From Geminicoccaceae bacterium (GTDB lineage: Bacteria > Pseudomonadota > Alphaproteobacteria > Geminicoccales > Geminicoccaceae), in assembly GCA_965222015.1 (NCBI GenBank), contig CBDCTL010000010.1, forward strand, positions 47,905 to 111,904: a DNA stretch of 64,000 nucleotides. The letters run 5' to 3'. Positions 1,574-51,671 of the stretch are shown here, in pieces. The notes under the pieces were generated by a model that made no database searches, was not told where the DNA came from, and worked only from the letters and a program-made list of their open reading frames with translations. The translations under genes were made by a program, and so were the position numbers. Numbering within the stretch: position 1 is the first letter of the stretch; each line of letters starts with the position of its first letter.

Positions 1574-3277
1574 TTGGACGTGTCCGCCGCCATCAGCCTC
1601 TCCAGGCGTGAGCTTTCGACCGGACGATTGTTCGATCTCGTTATCTCGACACTCGCGATCTACATTCTGTCACTGGCTCTGCCGATCATGACCCTTCAGG
1701 TCTATGATCGGATTCTGCCGAGCGAAGATACAGGCACCCTGGCCGTTCTCATAGTCGGAGTCGTCATCGCCCTCACCCTCGAAGTGATGCTGAGGCTGAT
1801 GCGTGCCTACATGATCGGATGGAGTGGCGCGGCCTTTGAACATCGTGTTGCGTGCGATGCTATAGAGCATCTTATGTCGGCCAATCTTTCGCGACTGCCC
1901 GACCATGGCGTCGCCGGAAGCGTTCACCGGATGGCCGCCATAGGGCAGCTCAAGGATTTCTTCTCGGGGCAGTCGATAACGACGCTCTTCGAGGTGGCCT
2001 TCGTCTTCGTCTTTCTCGTACTGATCGCATACATTGCCGGTTATCTAGCATTGGTTCCTGTCGCCGTGATTTTGATTTTCGGCGGGCTGGTCGCTTTCGC
2101 TGGGGTGAAACTCAATCGGCGCCTGGCGGAGCGTGGCGACACCGACGACAAGCGCTACGATTTTCTCATCGAAGCACTTCAGGGGGTCCATACGATTAAG
2201 GCCATGGCGCTGGAGGGGATGTTTCTCAGACGCTATGAGACGCTCGAAGCTGCATCTTGCACTGCCAACTACAAGGTATCGCGAGTCGCATCTCACCTTG
2301 CAAATCTGGGAACCGTCGCTTCCCATGTGATGATTGCGAGTGTGATCAGTGCTGGCGCATTGATGGTGATCGATCACTACTTGTCGGTCGGCGCGTTGAT
2401 CGCGAGTCTGTTGTTATCGGGCAGACTAATGCAGCCGGTTCAAAAAGCACTCTTCCTCTGGATCCAGTACCAGAGTTTTCGTCTGACCTACGCGCAGGCT
2501 GCCAGTCTTTTCGACTTGCCGACGACAGCCAAGGCCCGAGAGGATGTTGAGATCGCAGCGAAGCGAGGTGAACTGATCCTTGAGAATGTCGGCTTCGGGT
2601 TCTCCGACGACTACCTCCTCTTCCAACATGTTGATCTTGAGTTGTGCCCAGGCGAGATCATTTCGCTTTCCGGCGAACAGGGTGCTGGCAAGTCGACGCT
2701 GCTGAAGATGATCGCCGGCGTTTATCCGCCGGGTGAAGGCAAAGTCCTGATCGATGGCAGTCCCACGGTTGCCTTCGATCCAAGAGAGTTGATGAATCGT
2801 GTTGGCTTGATCTCGACCGAGGGACTAATTTTCCGTGGTACCGTGCGAGAAAACATCACCCGCTTTGGCATCGTGCCGGATGCACAAGCCCTCGAAGTGG
2901 CTAAGCTCCTCGGTATTGACAAGGACTTGGCACGCCTTCCTGACGGTTTCAATACTCGACTCGAGGGGACGATCGCCGATGGTATCCCTCCGGGCTTGAA
3001 GCAGCGTATCGCCATCACGCGTTCACTAGCTCTCAAACCTCGCGTCGTGCTTTTCGACAATGCGGACCGTGGAATCGACCAGGAAGGCTACAACCTTCTC
3101 TTCTCGTTGCTGGGTCGAATAGGCGGCAAGGTCGCGATGGTGCTGGTATCCGATGATCTCAATCTACGAGGCCTCGCTTCCCGGCATCTGATCTTGACCG
3201 CTGGTGGTCTCACCCAGGATGATCGTCACACATCTGGCCAGAGCAACATTCATTTCTATCGTGAACTCAGAGCATGA
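1574..3277 (+). CDS. T1SS ABC transporter permease/ATP-binding protein (PrtD-like, no N-terminal domain) with degenerate catalytic motifs
   Basis: 567-aa ORF. Membrane domain has the [14 protein letters not shown] motif. Walker A is GEQGAGKST. The signature is IPPGL (2984-2998), Walker B is VVLFDN (Glu->Asn, 3056-3061), the Q-loop Q is T and the H-loop H is D. The start abuts the upstream stop. Confidence 0.85.
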
Positions 3278-5511
3278 ACGCCAGTGTCATAGCGTCCTGC
3301 TTGGCTGTCGATCGACCTGAAAGCATCGAACGCGGTGAATCTCTGCTTGACGAGCTTCGCAGTTCGGTCTGGATGCAAGAATCCGATATCGGAGCGTTGA
3401 ACAAGTGCTTTTGCATATTGACAACCGCTCTCGACCGACGAGCCGACCTCCAGAAAATCGTTCCTTGTCTTCCGAGAGAAGCGCGACCTTTCGACCTCCT
3501 CGCCCTCCTCAACGCTGTCGCCCACGTGGGGTACCGGCCACAGACGGCGCAGCTTTGTATCGCGGACGTTGAAGAGCGGCTTCTGCCCTGTCTGTTCATT
3601 CCGAAGGGCGGTGCGCTGGAACGCCAGGACGAGGCCCAGGTTCTTCTCGAGGTCATCGAGGACAGCGACGGGGATCGACTCTTCTGCATCTACGATGGCA
3701 CCTCGGGTGAGATAAGGCATCTCGAAAGACACGATGCTCAAGCGCAGAAGAATGGGTGCGCATACTTTTTCAAGCCATATCGTAGCCAGAGCGATCCAGC
3801 ATCGCGGATTGCCCGTCAAGCAAGCGGGCGAAGCTGGTTCGCCGCGGTTCTCGGACGTTTCCGAAGCCTGTTCGCTCAAATTCTGGCTATCGGCTTGTTG
3901 CTCAATCTTGTCGCTTTGTCGACACCGATATTCATCATGCTTGTTTACGACAGGGTTATCGCCAGCCAATCGACAGAAACGCTTTCCTTCCTGGTCATAG
4001 GTGTGTCGATCGCGATCGGCACGGAGGCGATACTGCGCGCGCTCCGATCGAGGAGCCTCGCTTGGCTGGCATCGAGAATTGATAATATTGTCAACAATAC
4101 GACTTTCGAGCAACTCTTCGGCATGCCGCCCGCCGCGATCGAGCGCGCGTCGGTATCTGCACAGATCGCGCGCATCAAGACCTTCGAGTCGCTGCGGGAC
4201 TTTTTCAGCGGGTCGGTTTTTCTGTCCTTCCTCGAAATACCGTTCGTCGTCGTTGCACTGTTGGTGCTGGGCAGTATTGCAGGGGTCATGGTCGCCGTGC
4301 CGCTGTTGGCGATCGGTTTCTACATTATGGCATTTTATTTAGTTCTTGGCCGCGTTCGCCATGAGATGCGTGAAGCAGCGAAGGCTAGTTCAGCCCGCCA
4401 CAGATTTCTGATCGAAACTTTCGAGAAGATAGAAGGAATTCGAGCGAATGGCCTGACGGACCGATGGGCGGCGATGTATCGCGAGCTCTCTGGACGTGAG
4501 TGCGTCAACAATTTCAAGCTGTCCTTCCTTGGCTTGATCGGTGAGCATGCCGGCCACGCCATCAGCCTGTTGGCAGCGACGACGACTCTCGGTCTCGGCG
4601 TCGTGCTCGCACGCGAAGCGGCCATCAGCACGGGGGCGCTCGTCGCCTCGATGATCCTCGTATGGCGCATCCTCTCCCCATTTCAAAGCCTTTGCGCGAT
4701 CGTTCCCCGACTTGAGCAACTCAGGAACAGCATCGTTCAAGTCAACAATCTAATGGATCTCGAAACCGAAGCAGTCATGAGCGCCGGCGGATCGTTTCGA
4801 CACATCAAGGGACGCATTTCATTTCAAAACGTGGCCTTTCGATACACAGCTGCGCAGGATGCGTTCATCAGAGACTTCACGCTGGAGGCGAAGCCGGGCG
4901 AGCTCGTCGTGATTACCGGCAGCAACGGAACTGGAAAGAGCACCATCCTGAAGCTGGCGCGCGGTCTCTATCAGCCGCAGACGGGGGCGGTGCGACTCGA
5001 TGGATTCGATCTGCGCCAATTGGACCCGATCCAGCTGCGCCGACAGTTGGCTTATGTCCCGCAGCGTCCTGACCTGTTTGCCGGCTCGATCGCCGAAAAT
5101 CTACGGCTTGCGGCACCTGCAGCCAGGGAATGCACTATTTGGGAAGCCCTCGAACTGGTCGACGCGGCGGCGGAGGTTGCGGAGCTGCCAGAGCAGCTTT
5201 CGACCCGAATTGGTAAGAGCGGAACCATACTGTCGTCCAGTCTCGCATTTCGATTGAGTCTGGCGCGTGCATTTCTCCAGGACACGCAGCTGGTTGCGAT
5301 CGACGAGCTTCCAAATTCTCTCCTCAACGGCAGGGCGGGACAGGCATTGAAAAGCATGGTCATCAAGCAACGAGGTCAAAGGACTATCCTCCTCGCAGCT
5401 CATCGTGCCGATCTTCTGCGCCTTGCCGACAGGGCCGTACTTCTCCGTCACGGTCAACAGCCGGGCGTCGGCTCGCCGGACATGATCTTCGGCATGATGG
5501 ATGCCGCATAG
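3274..5511 (+). CDS. T1SS ABC transporter permease/ATPase with ~190-aa N-terminal extension (possibly C39-like)
   Basis: 745-aa ORF with an ATGA overlap onto the previous ABC gene. Membrane domain has [11 protein letters not shown]. Walker A is [10 protein letters not shown]-loop VPQRP, Walker B LVAIDE (5290-5307), H-loop AAHR. The signature is LSSSL (5230-5244). Confidence 0.85.
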
Positions 5512-7901: not shown

Positions 7902-10900
7902 ATGAACGGCATCTTTTCCGCCGCCCGAACGGCGGATCTTCTCGTTGCCATCTGCATTGGCTCGCTGATCGCAGTTCTTGGATATGTTCACGTCGACATG
8001 TCGAAGAAAATGGAAGCCGGCTTCGAGGGCGCCGTCGACAGCCGGATGACCATCATCGAGCGTCGCGTCCAGTGGCCCATTCAAACTCTGGAAGCGTTTC
8101 GAGCTCTCTACAGTACCTCGCGGGTGATTGAGGAAAAGGAGTTCGCTGTTCTAGCGAATCGATGGTTGTCCGGTCCTGCAGCACTCGATGATGTCGACAT
8201 GGCGATGAACGCCATTGGCTGGATCCCTGTCGATAACGGAGTCGCTGCTGATGGTGAAGCTGATCCCGCATTGATTCTTGCCGCTACTGATGGCGAACCC
8301 ATGACAGCCGGCAATCGGGGAATCATCAAGCGATTCAATGGACAGGAACCAGCGGATCTACTTCTGTGGAAAGGGTTTCGGGAGGGTGTGATCGAGGCAC
8401 GTCTTGGTGTGAGTATGCCTAGGGGGACGGCGCCGGAGAGTACCTGGACCGCAACCTTTTACGTGCCCGTTTTCGACGCGATTCGCCTTAAGGGCGGTCC
8501 GCAGCTACGCGGTCACCTTTTCGCTGTCGTCAGTCTGAGGGATCTTCTGCGGAGTGATGGATCGAGCGGCAGCCTTCTAAGGATGCAAGCTTCTTATCAA
8601 ACGTCGGACGTTTGGATTACCATCGGCGACAACCGTTCGCATTCTGTCGACGACGGCAAGACAGGTCTCTACAGTCAGTTGTCTTTGCCGCTCGGTGATC
8701 AAAGCATCACATTGGTGTTTGCATCGATAAGCGATACCAGCGTGCCGGCCTGGTTTGCCTCGACGCCGGTTCCGATATTGGGTGCCTGCTTCATCTCAGT
8801 TCTTGCTCTGGGCGGCATCATGGCTCTCAATTTCAAACAGAGCCATCGTTTCGACCTCGTCTTGGATGATGCACGAAAAGCCAGGCAAAGCCAGTCCGAG
8901 TTTCTAGGGACGATCAGCCATGAAATTCGGACGCCGATGAACGGTATCATCGGTATGAGCGAACTGCTTCTTGATACGGAGCTTTCGAGAAAGCAGCGTG
9001 GCTACGCTGAGACTGTGCTGGGTTCCGCCGAGCATCTTCTGACACTGATCGATGACATGCTCGATTTCTCCCAAGTTGAAGATGCAACGGTCGAACTCAT
9101 GGCTGGGCCCATCGACGTCGCTGTCCTCTTTGACGACTTAGGCAAGCAGTTCGCTCCGTTGGCCGCTGAACGCGGGCTCGAACTCGTCATGTACCTTACG
9201 CCTGAATTTCCGCATCATGTCGTCGCCGATTCGCGGCGGCTACGCCAGATTCTAGCCAATTTAATCAGCAATGCCTTGAAGTTCACCGTCGACGGTGAAG
9301 TCGTCGTATCCGCCGAGCCGATCGCTCAGGCGACGTCGGCTGACGGTCTCGTGGCGTTGCGATTCGCCGTTTCCGACACTGGCCCCGGCATCGATGAGAG
9401 CCTGCAGAGCAGGGTTTTCGAGCGGTTCGTGCAGGGTGATGGCACGGACAGCAGGGCTTTTGGTGGTGCGGGGCTCGGGCTTTCGATCGTCAGGAAGCTG
9501 GTCGATGCCATGGGTGGCAGCTTCCGCCTAAAGAGTGCCTTGGGAAAGGGGTCGGTTTTTGAAGTCGACCTCTTCCTTCCGGCAGACGAGACGAAGAGAA
9601 CGGACGGGAACATGCCAAGCGATGCTGCTGGCAAGCGTGTCCTGATCGTCGACGATCTTCCGATCAACTGCAAGCTTCTCTCCGAGCAGCTCGGATCTGT
9701 GGGATTGGATTGCGTCACGGCAGCGAACTATTCGTCTGCGTTAGGCGCGCTACATGAAGCGGCAATCGACGGAGTTGCCTTTGCTTTGGTCCTCGCGGAT
9801 GAAGTGATGCCGAGAAAGGGCGGCGTCGCGCTCGCTTCGGCAATCGCCGATGATCCGACTCTATCGGGAACGCCGTTGATCCTGTGCGCCAACGCCGGCA
9901 GCGAGCATCTGGCAAGACTGAAGGCGCATCATGGCGTCTCGTCTGTCATCTCCAAACCGATACGGCTTGCGGGACTGATCGACGAGGTGGCCTCGATTTG
10001 CCGTTCAATACCGAAAAGCGAACCCCAGGCCCCAGGTCCCAGGCCTGTTGCGGCGATTATCGAAGGCGGCATTGGTCACGACGGTGCGAACACCGGAGCG
10101 CCTGCAGCCTTTGCCGAGGAGGAGGACAGTATTGTTCGGGCTGTGCATCCGGCGATGGGAGAACAGCAGGGACCTGAAAGCAGCGCGCCGACAAAAGCAG
10201 ACCGGCGCGGCAAATTCGAAGGATGTTCGGTGCTGCTGGTCGAAGACAATCGAGTCAATCGAACCTTCGCGACGCAGGTTCTGGAAGATCTGGGATGCAT
10301 GGTAGAACAGGCAGAGAATGGAGAGGAAGCCGTCCAGGCCGTCGGTGCAAAGGAATTCGACGCAATCCTGATGGATTGTCAGATGCCGATCATGGACGGA
10401 TTTCGGGCAACTTCGAAGATCTGCGAAATGACGAAGAACGGAGAAATCCGATCGACGCCGATCATCGCACTCACGGCGAATGCGATGCCAGGCGACAGAG
10501 AGCGGTGTTTCGGTGCCGGCATGCATGATTATATGTCGAAGCCTGTCCGGAAAGCCGACTTCGTCACGACACTCGGTAAGTGGCTGGACAAGAACCTGCA
10601 GCCCTCAAAATTGGAAAGTCCGTCGGCTTTGCAAGGGCGGTCCGACCTCGCGAAACCTGAGGCAAGGGTGCCACCGTCCACGCTGTCCGCGCCCAATTTG
10701 CCGGGCTGCAAAGACAAGGTCGCAAGAATGCCCGATGTCGCTGCTGAGCCAGCTCAGAGCCGTATATCCGATCGGAAGGTGACGGCAGTCGAACATGGCG
10801 AGAATCCGCACCCGGTGCTCGACCGCTCGGCGCTCGACAATGTTCGGTCGATGATGAAAGACGACTTTGCATCGATCCTGAACATCTTTTTGGAAGATGC

Positions 10901-11171
10901 CGCCACCTACGTCGACAACATCGCCAGGGGCATTGAAGAAGGAACCTTCGACAAAGCAGCGAGTGCGGCCCATGCACTCAAATCTTCTGCCGGTCAGCTG
11001 GGGGCCATGCGGTTGTCCAGCTTGGCGAAGCAATTCGAGGCGGATGCCAAAGCGGTCACCAAGGATCAAAGCCAGTCCCGAACCCAGGGCGACTGGTCCG
11101 GCCAGAGCGCAAGCCTGCGGCGGGTTTTCGCGGAGACCAAGCATGCACTCGAGGAGGTGGTGCAAAGTTGA
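7902..11171 (+). CDS. Hybrid sensor histidine kinase (periplasmic CHASE-like domain, HisKA, HATPase, two REC, C-terminal Hpt)
   Basis: H-box [15 protein letters not shown]-box ISNALKFT, G-boxes DTGPGI and [12 protein letters not shown]1 is at ~9640-10000. REC2 has LLVEDNRVN ... [11 protein letters not shown] ... YMSKP. Hpt motif is [16 protein letters not shown] 7902 is preferred over the ORF-track start at 7863. Confidence 0.9.
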
Positions 11172-45196: not shown

Positions 45197-45715
45197 GTGC
45201 CACAGCGCCTGTTCCCGAGCATCGTCGCCGTGCTTTCGTTTCTGACAGTCGTCACCCTGCCGGCCGCCGCCATGCCGCCGCTGCCGAAGCCCAAAGGCCA
45301 GGTGTTGCTCAGCGTCACCGGCGGGATCGAACGGACGAACGCCGAAGGGCGTGCGGATCTGGACCGGAAAATGCTCGAGTCGATCGGTCTGGTCGAGATC
45401 GAGACCGAGACCCCCTTCACCAAGGGCAGGACGACCTTCCGCGGCGTTCTCGCGCGCGACCTGCTCCGCCATCTCGGCGCAAGCGGCGACAGGATCGAAG
45501 CGGGCGCGCTCGACCTCTACAAGGTCGAGATCCCGACGGAGGATTTCGAGCAGTTCGACGTGCTCATCGCCCTCGAAGCGGATGGCAGAAGGCTGCGCGT
45601 CCGCGACCATGGCCCCGCCTGGATCGTCTATCCCTGGTCGCAGCACGAAGAACTCGGCAAGGAGGTCTACAGTCGACGCAGCATCTGGCAGATGAACACC
45701 ATCGACGTGCGATGA
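45197..45715 (+). CDS. Secreted small protein resembling a sulfite-oxidase-family (Oxidored_molyb) domain
   Basis: Signal peptide LFPSIVAVLSFLTVVTLPAAA. FRGVLARDLLRHLG...ALDLYKVEIP...LIALEADGRRL...HGPAWIVYP resembles the Moco-domain core. GTG start after GGAGA. Confidence 0.6.
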   Translation: MPQRLFPSIVAVLSFLTVVTLPAAAMPPLPKPKGQVLLSVTGGIERTNAEGRADLDRKMLESIGLVEIETETPFTKGRTTFRGVLARDLLRHLGASGDRIEAGALDLYKVEIPTEDFEQFDVLIALEADGRRLRVRDHGPAWIVYPWSQHEELGKEVYSRRSIWQMNTIDVR

Positions 45716-47157
45716 TCCCGATTCTCGGCAAGCGAGGACTCCTCTATATCGGTCTCTTCGGCTTTCTCATTCTGTCGAGCTCCGGGATGATCGGGGGGCT
45801 GGCCGGGTTGCGTGACACCATCGATCTGTCACCGGACTCGATCACCGGCTATGACGGCCATCGGGCCGAGGTCGAGTTCTCGCGGCTTCAGAACGCCATT
45901 TCACTCTACGTCGCCGGTTCGGAGAGTATCGATCTCGACGACGTGGTCATGCGCTTCGACATCCTTTGGGCCCGGGCCAACCTTTTCATGAATGGCAAGG
46001 CGTTCGAGTTCATGCGGCAGCAGGCCGGAGTAGGCGAGATGGGAGCGCTCATTCTCGAAACACTTCAGGCAATCGAGGACGACGTCATGAATCTCGAGCG
46101 TGGCGATCTGGCCACGCTCGAGCATGTCCAGGCACGGTTGGAGCCGCTTGAAGCCAGACTGACCGGTGCCACGACCCGGATCGCTGACCTCGAGGTGGAA
46201 CAGCGGGATCACGTCAACTCCTCTCTGCGGCGCGGGCTCGGAGAGCTGGATGGTCTCGGCGTTGCGGTCGGGCTCGTCGTGTCCCTGGTCCTGACGCTTT
46301 TCGGCGTCGAAGCGATTCAGGCTCGTCGAGCCGAGCGCAAGCTCGCCGACTATCAGGAACATCTGGAAGACCTGGTGGCGCAACGGACTGATGAGCTCGA
46401 GGAGCAGACCAGACTCCTGGAAAAGGCGCTGGACAAGGAGCGTGAGCTCACCACGCTGCAGCGGCAATTCGTGTCGATGGTGTCGCACGAGTTTCGCACG
46501 CCACTCGCCATCATCGACGGATCGACTCAGCGCCTGAGACGGCGGCTCGAGACCATGTCGGCCGACAAGGTCAAGAACGCCCTCGATCAAATTTCACGAT
46601 CGGTCGGACGGCTTCTGCATCTTATGGAAAGCACCTTGAGCGCCGCGCAGCTCGAAGCGGGTTCGATCGCCATGAGTGTCGGGGCCTGCGATCTGCAGGC
46701 GCTCATCGGTGAGGTGTGCAGCGACCAGCAGGAGCTGGCCAAGAGGCACCGGATCGTGGTCGGGCTGGAGGCGATGCCGGACATCGTCCAGGCGGACGGC
46801 AAGCTCCTGCGCCAGGTTTTTTCGAACCTGCTCTCCAACGCCGTGAAATATTCACCTGAAGGCGGCGAGGTGCGCGTCGACGGATGGGCGGATGGCGACC
46901 AGGCGGTGATCGCGGTTCGCGACCACGGCGTCGGCATCCCCGAGGCGGAGCTTCCCCGTCTGTTCCAACGCTTTTTCCGCGCCAGCACGTCGACGGGCAT
47001 TCCCGGCACCGGTATCGGGCTCCATTTCGTGAAGCATCTCGTCGAGATTCACGGCGGCGCCATCGACGTGGAAACGCGGGCCGGCGAGGGCTCGACCTTC
47101 TTCGTGCGCCTGCCCATCCAGGGATCCGAGGCCGTGGGAGACCGCGAGGCGGCCTGA
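45712..47157 (+). CDS. Membrane sensor histidine kinase (two TM, ~165-aa periplasmic loop)
   Basis: ATGA overlap with the upstream gene. H-box VSHEFRTPLAIIDG, N-box LSNAVKYS, G-boxes DHGVGI and GTGIGLHFV. Confidence 0.9.
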   Translation: MIPILGKRGLLYIGLFGFLILSSSGMIGGLAGLRDTIDLSPDSITGYDGHRAEVEFSRLQNAISLYVAGSESIDLDDVVMRFDILWARANLFMNGKAFEFMRQQAGVGEMGALILETLQAIEDDVMNLERGDLATLEHVQARLEPLEARLTGATTRIADLEVEQRDHVNSSLRRGLGELDGLGVAVGLVVSLVLTLFGVEAIQARRAERKLADYQEHLEDLVAQRTDELEEQTRLLEKALDKERELTTLQRQFVSMVSHEFRTPLAIIDGSTQRLRRRLETMSADKVKNALDQISRSVGRLLHLMESTLSAAQLEAGSIAMSVGACDLQALIGEVCSDQQELAKRHRIVVGLEAMPDIVQADGKLLRQVFSNLLSNAVKYSPEGGEVRVDGWADGDQAVIAVRDHGVGIPEAELPRLFQRFFRASTSTGIPGTGIGLHFVKHLVEIHGGAIDVETRAGEGSTFFVRLPIQGSEAVGDREAA

Positions 47158-48962: not shown

Positions 48963-49448
48963 ATGCCCAGCTTCGACATCGTTTCCAAGACCGAGATTCC
49001 CGAGGTCGACAACGCGCTGCAGGGGGCCAGACGCGAGATCGAGACGCGCTACGACTTCAAGGGCAGCGCCTGCTCGATCGAGCGCAGCGGCGAGACGCTC
49101 ACGATCAATGCGGATGACGACTTCAAGCTGAAGCAGGTGCAGGAACTCCTGCGCGGCCACATGGCGAAACGCAAGGTCGACACCCGCGCCTTCGACTTCC
49201 AGAAGCCGGAAAAGGCCAGCGGCAACAGCCTCCGCCAGACCGTCGCGATCAAGCAGGGCGTCGACCGCGAGCTCGCCCAGAAGATCGTGAAGGCGATCAA
49301 ATCAGAAAAACTCAAGGTCCAGGTCGCCATCCAGGGCGACGAACTCCGCGTCTCCGGCAAAAAACGCGACGACCTCCAAAGCGCCATCGCCTTCGTCAAG
49401 GGCCAGAAATACGACCACCCGCTGCAATATGTGAATTTTCGGGATTGA
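48963..49448 (+). CDS. yajQ: YajQ-family (UPF0234) nucleotide / cyclic-di-GMP-binding protein
   Basis: MPSFDIVSKTEIPEVDNALQGARREIETRYDFKGS... 161 aa, the canonical YajQ family pattern. Confidence 0.9.
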   Translation: MPSFDIVSKTEIPEVDNALQGARREIETRYDFKGSACSIERSGETLTINADDDFKLKQVQELLRGHMAKRKVDTRAFDFQKPEKASGNSLRQTVAIKQGVDRELAQKIVKAIKSEKLKVQVAIQGDELRVSGKKRDDLQSAIAFVKGQKYDHPLQYVNFRD

Positions 49449-49664
49449 GGCGCCAGTGGCACCGGGCTGGACTTGCCTGAGACTGATTTGGCGGTTTGGG
49501 GTCAGCTTTGGTGGTGCCGTTGCCGGCAGCGGAGCTAGGGGCATGCTCGACAGAGATGGCGATTTGTCCGAAAGCTAGGAATTCCTTATAAGATGATGCT
49601 CTAGTTTAGCGATAGAAGCCAGAAGCACTGGGCAAATTCCCGATACCTATGTTGGAAGTATTCT

Positions 49665-50486
49665 GTGGTGAGAAGCGCAAACAAAAACGCCAGGAAAGAC
49701 GAAGTAAAGATAGTTTTCTGTAGCAAGCGTACCGAAGAAGCATACTATATCTTCAATAGAAATGCATTTCCAGAAAAATTAGGTGATTATGTCGACGAAT
49801 GTGCGACAAAATTTTCCATGTTCAGGCATTGCGTTCAACAAACTTTTGCGCAAATCGAAGCAGATTTTGGGAGATTTGAGAATCGCCTTGATAAGCAAAA
49901 CCAAAACGGAGAACTGGATAATTTATTGATAAAAAACGATCATGTTAAAATAGTATGCTGTTATGATAGTGACAACTATATAACTTTCTTTGTTTCTAGT
50001 CTGGTTTACCTGAAAGCTTTTTTTGATGTCTATGCAAATCTTATAAAACAATCAATAGATCCAGGCTATAGAATAAGATTCGATTCCGGAAAAATAAAGG
50101 CTGACGGCGGAAAAATTTCTGGTGGAAAATTTATCAACTGGCTTAGTGAAATCAGCAAATGCCAACACATAGAACTTTCAAATTTATTTCTTCTACACTC
50201 ACGTGATTGGATCGACTGTGCCGTAGGATACCGAAATAAGTTAGCGCACTATGGTGATATTTTCGAATTGCATCGAATGAGAGTTGTTTTGCAAGCCAGA
50301 CGAAAACCTTTATACTGCATGTCCGAAGTCGAGCCTCCGACAATGCCGGATGGGCAAGATGTGCGATTATATGTTCAAAGTCTTGCCGATCGTCTCCAAG
50401 ATTTTTTGGCACGATCAATGCCACTTATTCCCGAAGTGAAGCTAAATTTGGTTGATTTTCGTAGATTTCCGCTAGACTTGAACTGA
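49665..50486 (+). CDS. Hypothetical protein with HEPN-type Rx4H motif (Abi-like RNase candidate)
   Basis: The only long ORF in an AT-rich islet. GYRNKLAHYG (R190-N-K-L-A-H195, nt 50232-50249) fits the R[ND]xxxH HEPN signature. GTG start is uncertain. I recognise no other domain. Confidence 0.55.
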   Translation: MVRSANKNARKDEVKIVFCSKRTEEAYYIFNRNAFPEKLGDYVDECATKFSMFRHCVQQTFAQIEADFGRFENRLDKQNQNGELDNLLIKNDHVKIVCCYDSDNYITFFVSSLVYLKAFFDVYANLIKQSIDPGYRIRFDSGKIKADGGKISGGKFINWLSEISKCQHIELSNLFLLHSRDWIDCAVGYRNKLAHYGDIFELHRMRVVLQARRKPLYCMSEVEPPTMPDGQDVRLYVQSLADRLQDFLARSMPLIPEVKLNLVDFRRFPLDLN

Positions 50487-50563
50487 GAAGAGCACATACG
50501 TTTCCGAAATTTGGCAAAGGGCGTGTGACGCCGCGCAAAGAACGGCAACGAATCCAGCCGCAA

Positions 50564-50591
50564 GAAAAACCGGCGGCCCGAAGGCCGCCGG
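50564..50591 (-). terminator. Rho-independent terminator of the TRAP substrate-binding-protein gene
   Basis: ccggcggcc-cgaa-ggccgccgg (50570-50591), a 9-bp GC stem followed on the minus strand by a T-run (aaaaa at 50565-50569 on the plus strand). It lies 25 nt after the stop at 50616. Confidence 0.7.
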
Positions 50592-50615
50592 CAGGTCAAC
50601 GAGATCGACGTTCGA

Positions 50616-51671
50616 TTATTGGAGGTAGACGCGCTCGCCGGCCTTGTCGACCTCTTCCAGGAACAGGTTCAGGAGCTCCTCGCCTTTTTCGCCGTAGGCC
50701 GACTTGATCAGATCGATCACCGCCGGCTGCGCCGCCTGCTTGAAGGCTTCCTTGTCCTCCGCCGAGAGTGCGTGGACTTCCATCTTCGACTGCAGCTTGG
50801 GCAGGCCGCGGTCCGAGGCCTCGATGGCGCGGGCGATGCCGCGGGACGCGACGATGCCGGACTTGGCGGCGTAGTGGACGATGTATTTTTCGTCCTCGGT
50901 CAACCCGTCGTAAAACGATTTGTTAACCAGGATGGTGTAGGGGGTGAACAGGTGCTCGGTGAGCGTGAGGTAACCCTGGACCTCCTCGAAGTTGGAGAAC
51001 GCGATGATCGGCACCGGGTTCATCTGGCCGTCGATGACGCCGGTCTGCAGGCCGGAATAGACCTCCGCCCAGGCGAGCGGATAGGCCTCGGCGCCGAGGG
51101 AGTTGATCAGGGTCTGATGGCTTTCAAGGGTCATGGTGCGGATGCGCAGGCCTTCCAGATCCTCGAGCTTGGCGACCGGCTTCTTCGAGTTCGAAATCGA
51201 GAAAAACCCGCCGGTGTCGGCGAAGCCCAGCACCTTGACGTCACCGAGATCGGCCTCGATATCGCGGGCGAGCGCCTGGCCGAACGGTCCGTCGAACACG
51301 TCGTAGACGGCAGAGATGTGCGGGAAGGCGAAGGCGACGTCGATCACGCCGATCTTCGGGTAGTGCGAGGCGAGACCGCCGACCGAGGCGAGGGATGCCT
51401 GGATGACGCCGTCCCGAACCTGCTGGGCGATCTCGAAGTCCTTGCCAAGCTGGCCGTTCGGGAAGATTTCGACCGTGATCTCGCCATTGGTGGCGCTCTC
51501 CACGATGTTCTTGAACACCTTGCCGAAGGCGCCCGCCGGGTTCTCGAACGGATCGTCATTGTTGAGATGCCCGAGCTTCAGCACCTTTTCGGCTGCCGCG
51601 GGCAGCGCGGTCACCCCAAGAGTCAGGGCCAGCACCGCCGGTGCCAGCAGGGCTTTGTGCAGCGTTTTCAT
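50616..51671 (-). CDS. TRAP transporter substrate-binding protein (DctP family)
   Basis: Signal peptide MKTLHKALLAPAVLALTLGVTALPAAA. LKLGHLNNDDPFENPAG... is the DctP-family pattern. ATG 51671 is preferred, after GGGAGA. Confidence 0.9.
   Translation of the reverse strand: MKTLHKALLAPAVLALTLGVTALPAAAEKVLKLGHLNNDDPFENPAGAFGKVFKNIVESATNGEITVEIFPNGQLGKDFEIAQQVRDGVIQASLASVGGLASHYPKIGVIDVAFAFPHISAVYDVFDGPFGQALARDIEADLGDVKVLGFADTGGFFSISNSKKPVAKLEDLEGLRIRTMTLESHQTLINSLGAEAYPLAWAEVYSGLQTGVIDGQMNPVPIIAFSNFEEVQGYLTLTEHLFTPYTILVNKSFYDGLTEDEKYIVHYAAKSGIVASRGIARAIEASDRGLPKLQSKMEVHALSAEDKEAFKQAAQPAVIDLIKSAYGEKGEELLNLFLEEVDKAGERVYLQ

Follow-up and report, generated by a model that had tools for sequence, protein, structure and literature searches.

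HEPN families share little beyond an Rx4-6H motif, their most conserved feature, which stands at the end of helix 3; the residue after the motif arginine is typically N, D or H, a conserved acidic residue is often present in helix 2, and inserts between helices 2 and 3 are common (PMC3710099). Among the described HEPN proteins, ApeA and DARNA (PD-T7-3) are single-protein anticodon nucleases that have no antitoxin and are activated by ligands, namely deoxydinucleotides for ApeA and SSB-bound single-stranded DNA for DARNA. Here, we analyzed a stretch of 64,000 nucleotides from a Geminicoccaceae bacterium (assembly GCA_965222015.1, contig CBDCTL010000010.1, positions 47,905 to 111,904), hereafter the window, in which an AT-rich islet holds one gene for a 273-residue protein, a candidate HEPN-type ribonuclease. 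The first-pass annotation, made from the letters alone, had read this gene as a candidate for a lone, horizontally acquired abortive-infection or toxin ribonuclease. As a whole, a horizontally acquired stand-alone HEPN-type endoribonuclease engaged in genetic conflict would be the best explanation, and we hold it with belief and doubt about evenly balanced. The features that carry the argument are as follows (positions are those of the window, residue numbers those of the protein):

49562..50520, no strand: AT-rich single-gene islet (inserted segment), 958 bp, GC 0.385, with flanks at 0.612 and 0.627
49665..50486, plus strand: open reading frame (ORF) of 273 codons with a GTG start, candidate HEPN-type ribonuclease
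49752..49772, plus strand: conserved N-terminal motif F30-N-x-N-A-F-P36 (N33 in 103/113 sequences, N31 in 94/114, P36 in 98/116)
50013..50027, plus strand: K117-x-x-L/F-D121, candidate HEPN helix-2 acidic residue, in predicted helix 103-131
50208..50249, plus strand: W182-x7-R190-N191-x3-H195, HEPN-type Rx4H signature, at the C-terminal end of predicted helix 166-196

Like the family described here, ApeA is encoded by a single gene without an antitoxin, and the catalytic helices are alike, reading W...YR(T)RN-x-I-V-H-x-G in ApeA and W...Y-R-[DN]-x-L-x-H-x-G in the family. The HEPN domain of ApeA, of about 250 residues, has an insertion between H3 and H4, and the predicted model of the window protein likewise has an insert between the motif helix and the next long helix. 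However, ApeA proteins (Pfam HEPN_Apea, PF18739) are about 580-600 residues long and include N-terminal and Mid domains, which make up the ligand pocket and the decamer or dodecamer contacts; a protein of 273 residues has no room for these. The query has no HEPN_Apea match at E<=10, the inspected members stay below the 24.4-bit gathering threshold, and PADLOC and NCBIfam, where ApeA models are expected, gave no recurrent match. The genomic settings differ as well, since the E. coli ApeA genes that we fetched lie in P2-like prophages or beside a relaxase gene, whereas the family is found in bare chromosomal islets.

The remaining systems each resemble the locus in part. DARNA is likewise a single protein that has no antitoxin and stays latent until an infection cue activates it; however, at 456 residues it is longer, combining a HEPN domain at the N-terminus (1-159) with a large sensor domain at the C-terminus, it forms dodecamers, and PADLOC gave no significant match for the family. 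HepT of the HepT-MntA system, which is reported as the structural neighbor closest to the HEPN domain of ApeA, is a HEPN toxin that is small and carries an Rx4H motif, as the candidate protein might be, but it has about 140-150 residues and is always paired with an MNT antitoxin, and no MNT neighbor was found in the window or at the other loci. The Abi_2 (AbiD/AbiF) proteins share the RNxxAH-type motif with the window protein, and the first-pass annotation had pointed to them; this pointer did not hold, since neither the query nor, recurrently, the members match Pfam Abi_2, and the only related hit is that of the query to the PHROG abortive-infection family phrog_2158 (E=0.029, residues 154-202; 1/69 members), which covers the motif helix only. 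Moreover, AbiF is reported with an RNA antitoxin, and none was seen for the family in tandem-repeat and Rfam searches of the islet. Finally, the integron-cassette HEPN proteins (PDB 3jrt family; PMC3710099, Table 1) are comparable in that a HEPN gene moves as a single-gene cassette. Unlike these, the islet has no integron, integrase or attC-like inverted repeat at its 3' end, and its protein gave no sequence or structure match to them.

A rare family with three invariant residues

The 273-codon ORF is present as first described, with codons 50232-50249 reading R-N-K-L-A-H (R190 to H195), and it has no paralogue in the window (next best tblastn match, E=1.5). An exhaustive phmmer search against 1.84 billion cluster representatives (clusters at 50% identity) returned 145 relatives at E<=1e-3, 93 of them at E<=1e-10. 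Most members have 240-290 residues and are matched over their full length, the closest being 46% identical. A word-indexed search of 5.8 billion proteins found the query itself only, and with the family profile such a search returned just 5 proteins. Among about 15 billion proteins, each of the ten closest clusters is a singleton; they come from metagenomes or metagenome-assembled genomes (MAGs) and are unnamed or labelled only 'hypothetical protein'. The MAGs that carry members are labelled Desulfobulbia, Binatia, Aminicenantales and Deltaproteobacteria. Pfam, NCBIfam, PHROGs and PADLOC hold no description of the family, and no solved structure is a neighbor. Judged by sequence, the ORF thus belongs to a real, rare, fast-diverging and undescribed family of proteins of about 260 residues, known only from metagenomes and MAGs.

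Two alignments were used, one of 69 full-length members (27% mean column identity) and one of all detected members (147 sequences). In the first, exactly three columns are invariant: W182, R190 and H195. Across the 147 sequences, with counts given over the sequences that cover each position, W182 is kept in 139/139, R190 in 137/138 and H195 in 138/139. Position 191 is D or N in 135/138 (D in 129, N in 6), so that the window protein, with N, carries the minority variant. Outside the motif, D121 is found in 131/132 and K or R at 117 in 129/131, followed by F139 (133/136), G153 (132/134) and P256 (114/116).

The AlphaFold model of the window protein is predicted with high confidence (predicted local distance difference test score, pLDDT, 94.6; predicted template modeling score, pTM, 0.90), and that of a member only 25% identical to it (pLDDT 96.0, pTM 0.92) has the same topology. 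In the first half, the model consists of a very long helix (37-80), a long helix with K117 and D121 (103-131) and an insert made of a hairpin and a short helix; in the second half, a long helix (166-196) that ends in R-x4-H is followed by a strand-containing insert and a fourth helix (233-254). The corresponding helix of the second model (152-179) is likewise predicted to end at R174/H179. No transmembrane segment is predicted for the window protein (maximum Kyte-Doolittle value 1.43). A reading of the protein as a pore-former, suggested by recurrent Foldseek matches to ClyA, XaxB and NheA (E of about 1, template modeling score <=0.25), was rejected because there is no hydrophobic segment; these are generic long-helix matches.

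Some of the longer members carry additional segments. P0067, P0094 and P0097 (368-376 residues) have in common an N-terminal extension of about 105 residues, without Pfam match, that could be an added sensor or regulatory domain, and P0045 has a SEC-C metal-binding motif at its C-terminus. In P0109 (327 residues), the N-terminal extension matches RNA_pol_Rpb5_C (E=1.4e-8, residues 48-82), an odd pairing that may come from a mis-called start or a chimeric contig. As clues to function, these fusions were uninformative.

Resemblance to HEPN domains

In sequence and in predicted secondary structure, the family matches the features described for HEPN domains in PMC3710099. R190-x4-H195 is an Rx4-6H motif, the residue after the arginine is polar (D or N), and in both predicted models the motif stands at the end of a helix and is followed by a loop. 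D121, together with K117, is placed by the models in the long helix preceding the motif helix, and is a candidate for the acidic residue of helix 2. Between these two helices, the models have an insert, as is common between helices 2 and 3 of HEPN domains. The bare R[ND]xxxH pattern is weak evidence, since it is frequent (31 occurrences in the long stop-to-stop ORFs of the window, with about 0.12 expected per 273 residues); here it is more than chance, because R190 and H195 are kept in the homologues.

Profile comparisons point in the same direction at a low level. When the 69 full-length members were scanned one by one against 24,736 Pfam models, HEPN_Apea was matched by 12 of them (best E=5.3e-4) and was the only Pfam family matched by more than one member, and the three HEPN_Apea matches that were inspected all fall on the motif helix. 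Single members matched HEPN_Swt1 and HEPN_MAE_28990 in Pfam, and Csx1/Csm6 and Cas13-ApeA in PADLOC, where no model was matched by more than one of the 69. For a direct comparison by hmmsearch and hhalign, we assembled a set of ApeA proteins (Ec1, Ec2 and Ec3 from E. coli genomes and five from IMG/VR). The best local hhalign alignment, which is not significant, puts R190/H195 on the catalytic R502/H507 of Ec2ApeA; the R502A substitution is known to abolish ApeA defense. In Foldseek, the highest-probability matches of the first model are HepT chains (probability 0.15-0.28, E about 1).

Several results weigh against a HEPN assignment. In Pfam, NCBIfam and PADLOC, the query has no match even at E<=10, and no significant profile similarity to any HEPN family was found. 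The three inspected HEPN_Apea matches score 12.5-14.5 bits, with the cut-off at 24.4, and span 27-38 residues. The family profile gives the E. coli ApeA proteins at most 2.5 bits, and hhalign aligns the catalytic helix of ApeA only (P=0.15-0.17). PDB sequence and profile searches gave chance matches only (eIF5, C3a receptor). Foldseek searches with two models against the PDB and with one against BFVD gave no neighbor at E<0.6, and the best HepT match (7AE8, probability 0.28) did not recur when the second model was used.

These results leave room for a different reading, in which the protein has a new helical fold, the conserved W, R and H together with D and K serve ligand or nucleotide binding or some other hydrolytic chemistry, and the Rx4H pattern is convergent or coincidental. 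In its favor, no HEPN family is significantly matched by profile, two confidently predicted models are without a Foldseek neighbor apart from one weak HEPN match that could not be reproduced, the HEPN_Apea similarity is confined to one helix, and the R[ND]xxxH pattern is common, as the 31 chance matches in the window illustrate. However, the motif is the most conserved feature of the family, with the canonical D or N after the arginine and a position at a helix end before a loop, and the only family recurrently matched among all the Pfam models, by 12/69 members, is a HEPN family. In addition, known HEPN families share little with each other beyond the motif (PMC3710099). Because the profile and structure tests failed, the non-HEPN reading nevertheless keeps a substantial minority share of our belief. 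If it is right, a confidently predicted, strongly conserved protein with catalytic-looking residues would remain as a target for structural and functional work. Taken together, we consider membership of the HEPN superfamily probable but unproven: the original HEPN proposal is backed by an invariant motif, by the chemistry of that motif and its predicted place in the helix, and by recurrent sub-threshold HEPN_Apea matches, and a significant profile or structure match was not found.

While fetching the ApeA comparison set, we noted that Ec2-type (L005:2605-4356) and Ec3-type (L007:2601-4354) ApeA genes in P2-like prophages are labelled 'hypothetical protein' and lie between the baseplate assembly V gene and a virion morphogenesis gene. 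The Ec3-type copy of strain EC416 is probably disrupted, as it falls into two ORFs (2601-3188 and 3236-4354).

An inserted single-gene islet between yajQ and dctP

No other 900-bp stretch of the 64-kb window is as low in GC as the islet (0.387 versus a window median of 0.650), and its borders at 49562 and 50520 were obtained by a two-change-point likelihood fit (log-likelihood gain of 64); they are thus compositional and not base-exact. The four 60-nucleotide G+C counts on which the islet had originally been proposed (14/60, 25/60, 32/60 and 36/60) were exact on recount, and the span proposed then, 49545-50500, is near the fitted one of 49562-50520. The islet is located between the convergent 3' ends of two core genes, and the features of the flanks and of the gene start are:

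48963..49448, plus strand: yajQ, left flanking core gene; the orthologue in the Geminicoccales MAG L014 carries PF04461 YajQ, and synteny is conserved
49564..49592, plus strand: candidate sigma-70-like promoter TTGTCC-17 nt-TATAAG at the left edge of the islet, 9/12 consensus positions
49654..49658, plus strand: Shine-Dalgarno-like GGAAG, 6 nt before the GTG start
50569..50592, minus strand: dctP intrinsic terminator, a 10-bp stem with 9 GC pairs and then a T-run, in native DNA just outside the islet
50616..51671, minus strand: dctP, TRAP solute-binding protein, right flanking core gene, convergent with yajQ; 92% identical to the DctP of a Geminicoccales MAG

The closest syntenic relative, L014 (GCA_041156745.1), has the same gene order (dctQ-dctM-dctP, yajQ, tadE, GGDEF/EAL) and a spacer between yajQ and dctP of only 181 bp, compared with 1,167 bp in the window. 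The coding flanks of the two align well; their spacers align no better than shuffled sequence, and since they cannot be aligned, the borders of the islet are defined by composition only. DctP homologues are 92-79% identical in Geminicoccales and Geminicoccaceae MAGs, from which the host is probably a member of this alphaproteobacterial group. The 273-residue ORF is absent from the other DctP-bearing relatives, L015-L021, which carry other genes downstream of dctP and therefore provide no further empty sites. A mapping of presence and absence among relatives, as had been suggested at first, thus yielded the empty site in L014, and base-exact borders were not obtained from it.

Homologues of the gene are also found in AT-rich islets of other high-GC genomes. 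In L012 (GCA_028277845.1), the homologue P0003 (39% identical) is alone in an islet at 9834-10844 (1,010 bp, GC 0.426 versus 0.67 and 0.56), with a gene for a Mem_trans permease on one side and a hypothetical gene on the other, in surroundings that include gatCAB, ruvX, pyrBC, plsY, dprA and topA. In L008, a Desulfobulbia MAG, the islet of the homologue has 1,222 bp and a GC of 0.471 versus 0.626. Both islets are independent, at sites unrelated to that of the window. Because of the empty site in L014 and of these independent single-gene islets elsewhere, it is strongly supported that the islet is a real insertion and was horizontally acquired, as the first-pass annotation had held. As a well-bounded single-gene micro-island with an empty site, it is useful for the study of how orphan accessory genes enter high-GC genomes.

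The islet itself has no repeats of note, tRNA, integrase or transposase. A 7-bp repeat, TCCGAAA, is present at both of its borders and is not significant, since 122/500 shuffles match it. At the L008 locus, a 10-bp direct repeat, GTGTGCGTGA, flanks the AT-rich islet of the homologue (L008:9853-9862 and 11052-11061) and duplicates the last codons and the stop of the upstream ribonucleotide reductase gene; a shared word as long as this was obtained in 6/500 shuffles. A target-site duplication or a scar of recombination could explain it. Separately, the position downstream of dctP is a synteny breakpoint among the Geminicoccales relatives (window 50616 onward compared with L014-L021). L014 has yajQ there, L015 and L016 have a gene for a PALP enzyme, L017 has one for glutamine synthetase, and L018 and L019 have one for an aminotransferase; the junction appears prone to rearrangement or insertion.

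The sigma-70-like sequence at the left edge of the islet may be a promoter; its TATAAG site was skipped by the promoter scanner, which demands a -10 hexamer that ends in T. The conserved region is preceded by only two candidate in-frame starts, GTG 49665 and GTG 49668, and an in-frame stop is at 49602. These signals bear on whether the gene is a silenced or decaying passenger without function in its present host, as might be supposed of a strongly AT-rich segment in a genome of 64% GC. AT-rich DNA is the kind targeted by xenogeneic silencers. We regard this as very improbable, given that the ORF is full length and keeps all invariant and nearly invariant residues (the N at 191 being also polar), with both promoter-like and Shine-Dalgarno-like signals in place.

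Partners, control and possible role

The first-pass annotation had seen no antitoxin, MNT or partner ORF in the window. This absence was confirmed and extended to a sample of 21 loci that carry a family member, in which 93 neighboring ORFs were compared at E<=1e-4: none resembles a neighbor at another locus, and none of at least 60 residues is common to two loci. The gene is therefore without a conserved partner, antitoxin or operon, and its architecture is stand-alone.

An antitoxin might still have been overlooked, as a small ORF or an RNA (as reported for AbiF) within the islet, in which case the protein would be the toxin of a toxin-antitoxin pair. HEPN toxins are often neutralized by MNT proteins, RNA antitoxins or partner proteins, and the islet offers some space for one, with an AT-rich leader of about 100 bp before the ORF and short antisense ORFs at 49601-49743 that run across the start of the gene. 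Nevertheless, no tandem repeats and no relevant Rfam family (E<=1) were found in the islet, and the upstream DNA shows no convincing conservation between homologues, so that an RNA antitoxin is not indicated. Considering also that no neighboring ORF of that size recurs among the 21 loci, and that no MNT or other Pfam domain is adjacent, we judge such a pair quite unlikely.

As to the role of the gene, its patchy, fast-evolving and compositionally foreign pattern is in line with the defense function first suggested for it; a PADLOC match for the protein and a defense context were not found. Two observations tell against such a role. Neighbors that match any PADLOC model are 2/74 (E<=1e-5), with no defense islands, and no family member was found in IMG/VR, in 72,556 plasmids or in 50,697 phage genomes. 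The neighbors are ordinary genes, for instance those for ribonucleotide reductase, GatCAB, PyrBC, TopA, polyprenyl synthase and transporters. A defense role is plausible from the pattern of the gene, and its context lends no support.

The same neighborhoods could speak for a cellular role outside conflict, in RNA processing, regulation or metabolism, with the patchy distribution being incidental. Housekeeping genes are next to the gene at nearly every locus, there is no association with defense islands, and the only link to a mobile element is one weak HTH_Tnp_1 neighbor (L010). However, the closest syntenic relative lacks the gene, its composition is foreign to at least three high-GC genomes, its ten nearest clusters are singletons throughout and extremely divergent, and there is no conserved operon partner. 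Since accessory genes of the conflict type typically show such a pattern and core genes do not, we think a purely cellular role unlikely.

Returning to the HEPN-type endoribonuclease, we propose the following scheme. The islet would be a self-contained cassette of about 0.96 kb, with a promoter-like site, a ribosome-binding site and one gene, acquired horizontally by a Geminicoccales-like alphaproteobacterium. Its product would be soluble and mostly helical, most likely a new and highly divergent branch of the HEPN superfamily, and would act as a metal-independent endoribonuclease. Its active site would consist of H195 and R190, aided by the polar residue at 191 and perhaps by D121 and K117, and would probably be composite across a homodimer, by analogy with other HEPN enzymes. 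Because nothing travels with the gene, its control would be intrinsic or at transcription. In the first case, the conserved N-terminal module and the inserts could keep the protein latent until a trigger arrives, after the manner of ApeA and DARNA; alternatively, transcriptional silencing of the AT-rich DNA could restrain it. The role would be in genetic conflict, as an abortive-infection defense or a selfish toxin.

If the protein is indeed a HEPN enzyme, the family would be an undescribed stand-alone branch of the main ribonuclease toxin superfamily of bacterial immunity, smaller than ApeA and DARNA and lacking both their accessory sensor domains and the antitoxins of HepT and AbiF. New divergent HEPN-like families are not surprising per se, but this one would raise the question of how a ribonuclease of 260 residues stays harmless and gets switched on. 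In a more far-reaching version, the protein would be a minimal autonomous single-protein ribonuclease module of immunity or addiction, of about 260 residues, that combines sensor, switch and HEPN-like effector in one elaborated domain with a fold unseen in solved structures. Such a module would spread between distant phyla as a bare promoter-plus-gene cassette of about 1 kb that enters between convergent core genes, perhaps by an unknown route of insertion at which the L008 repeat hints. We offer this version as speculation, with a rather small chance of being right in full.

Two further matches were seen in the surroundings of the islet. The PADLOC candidate model PDC-M43B is matched (E=3.5e-8) by residues 365-471 of a 496-residue ORF at 45667-47154 (plus strand), which lies some 2.5 kb upstream of the islet; because the syntenic gene of L014 encodes GGDEF/EAL, the match probably reflects a shared signaling domain and not a defense gene. 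Also, a weak match to the Rfam small RNA Xoo2 at 50564-50617 (minus strand; 19.8 bits versus a gathering score of 45, E=0.68) falls on the hairpin of the dctP terminator and is almost certainly due to chance.

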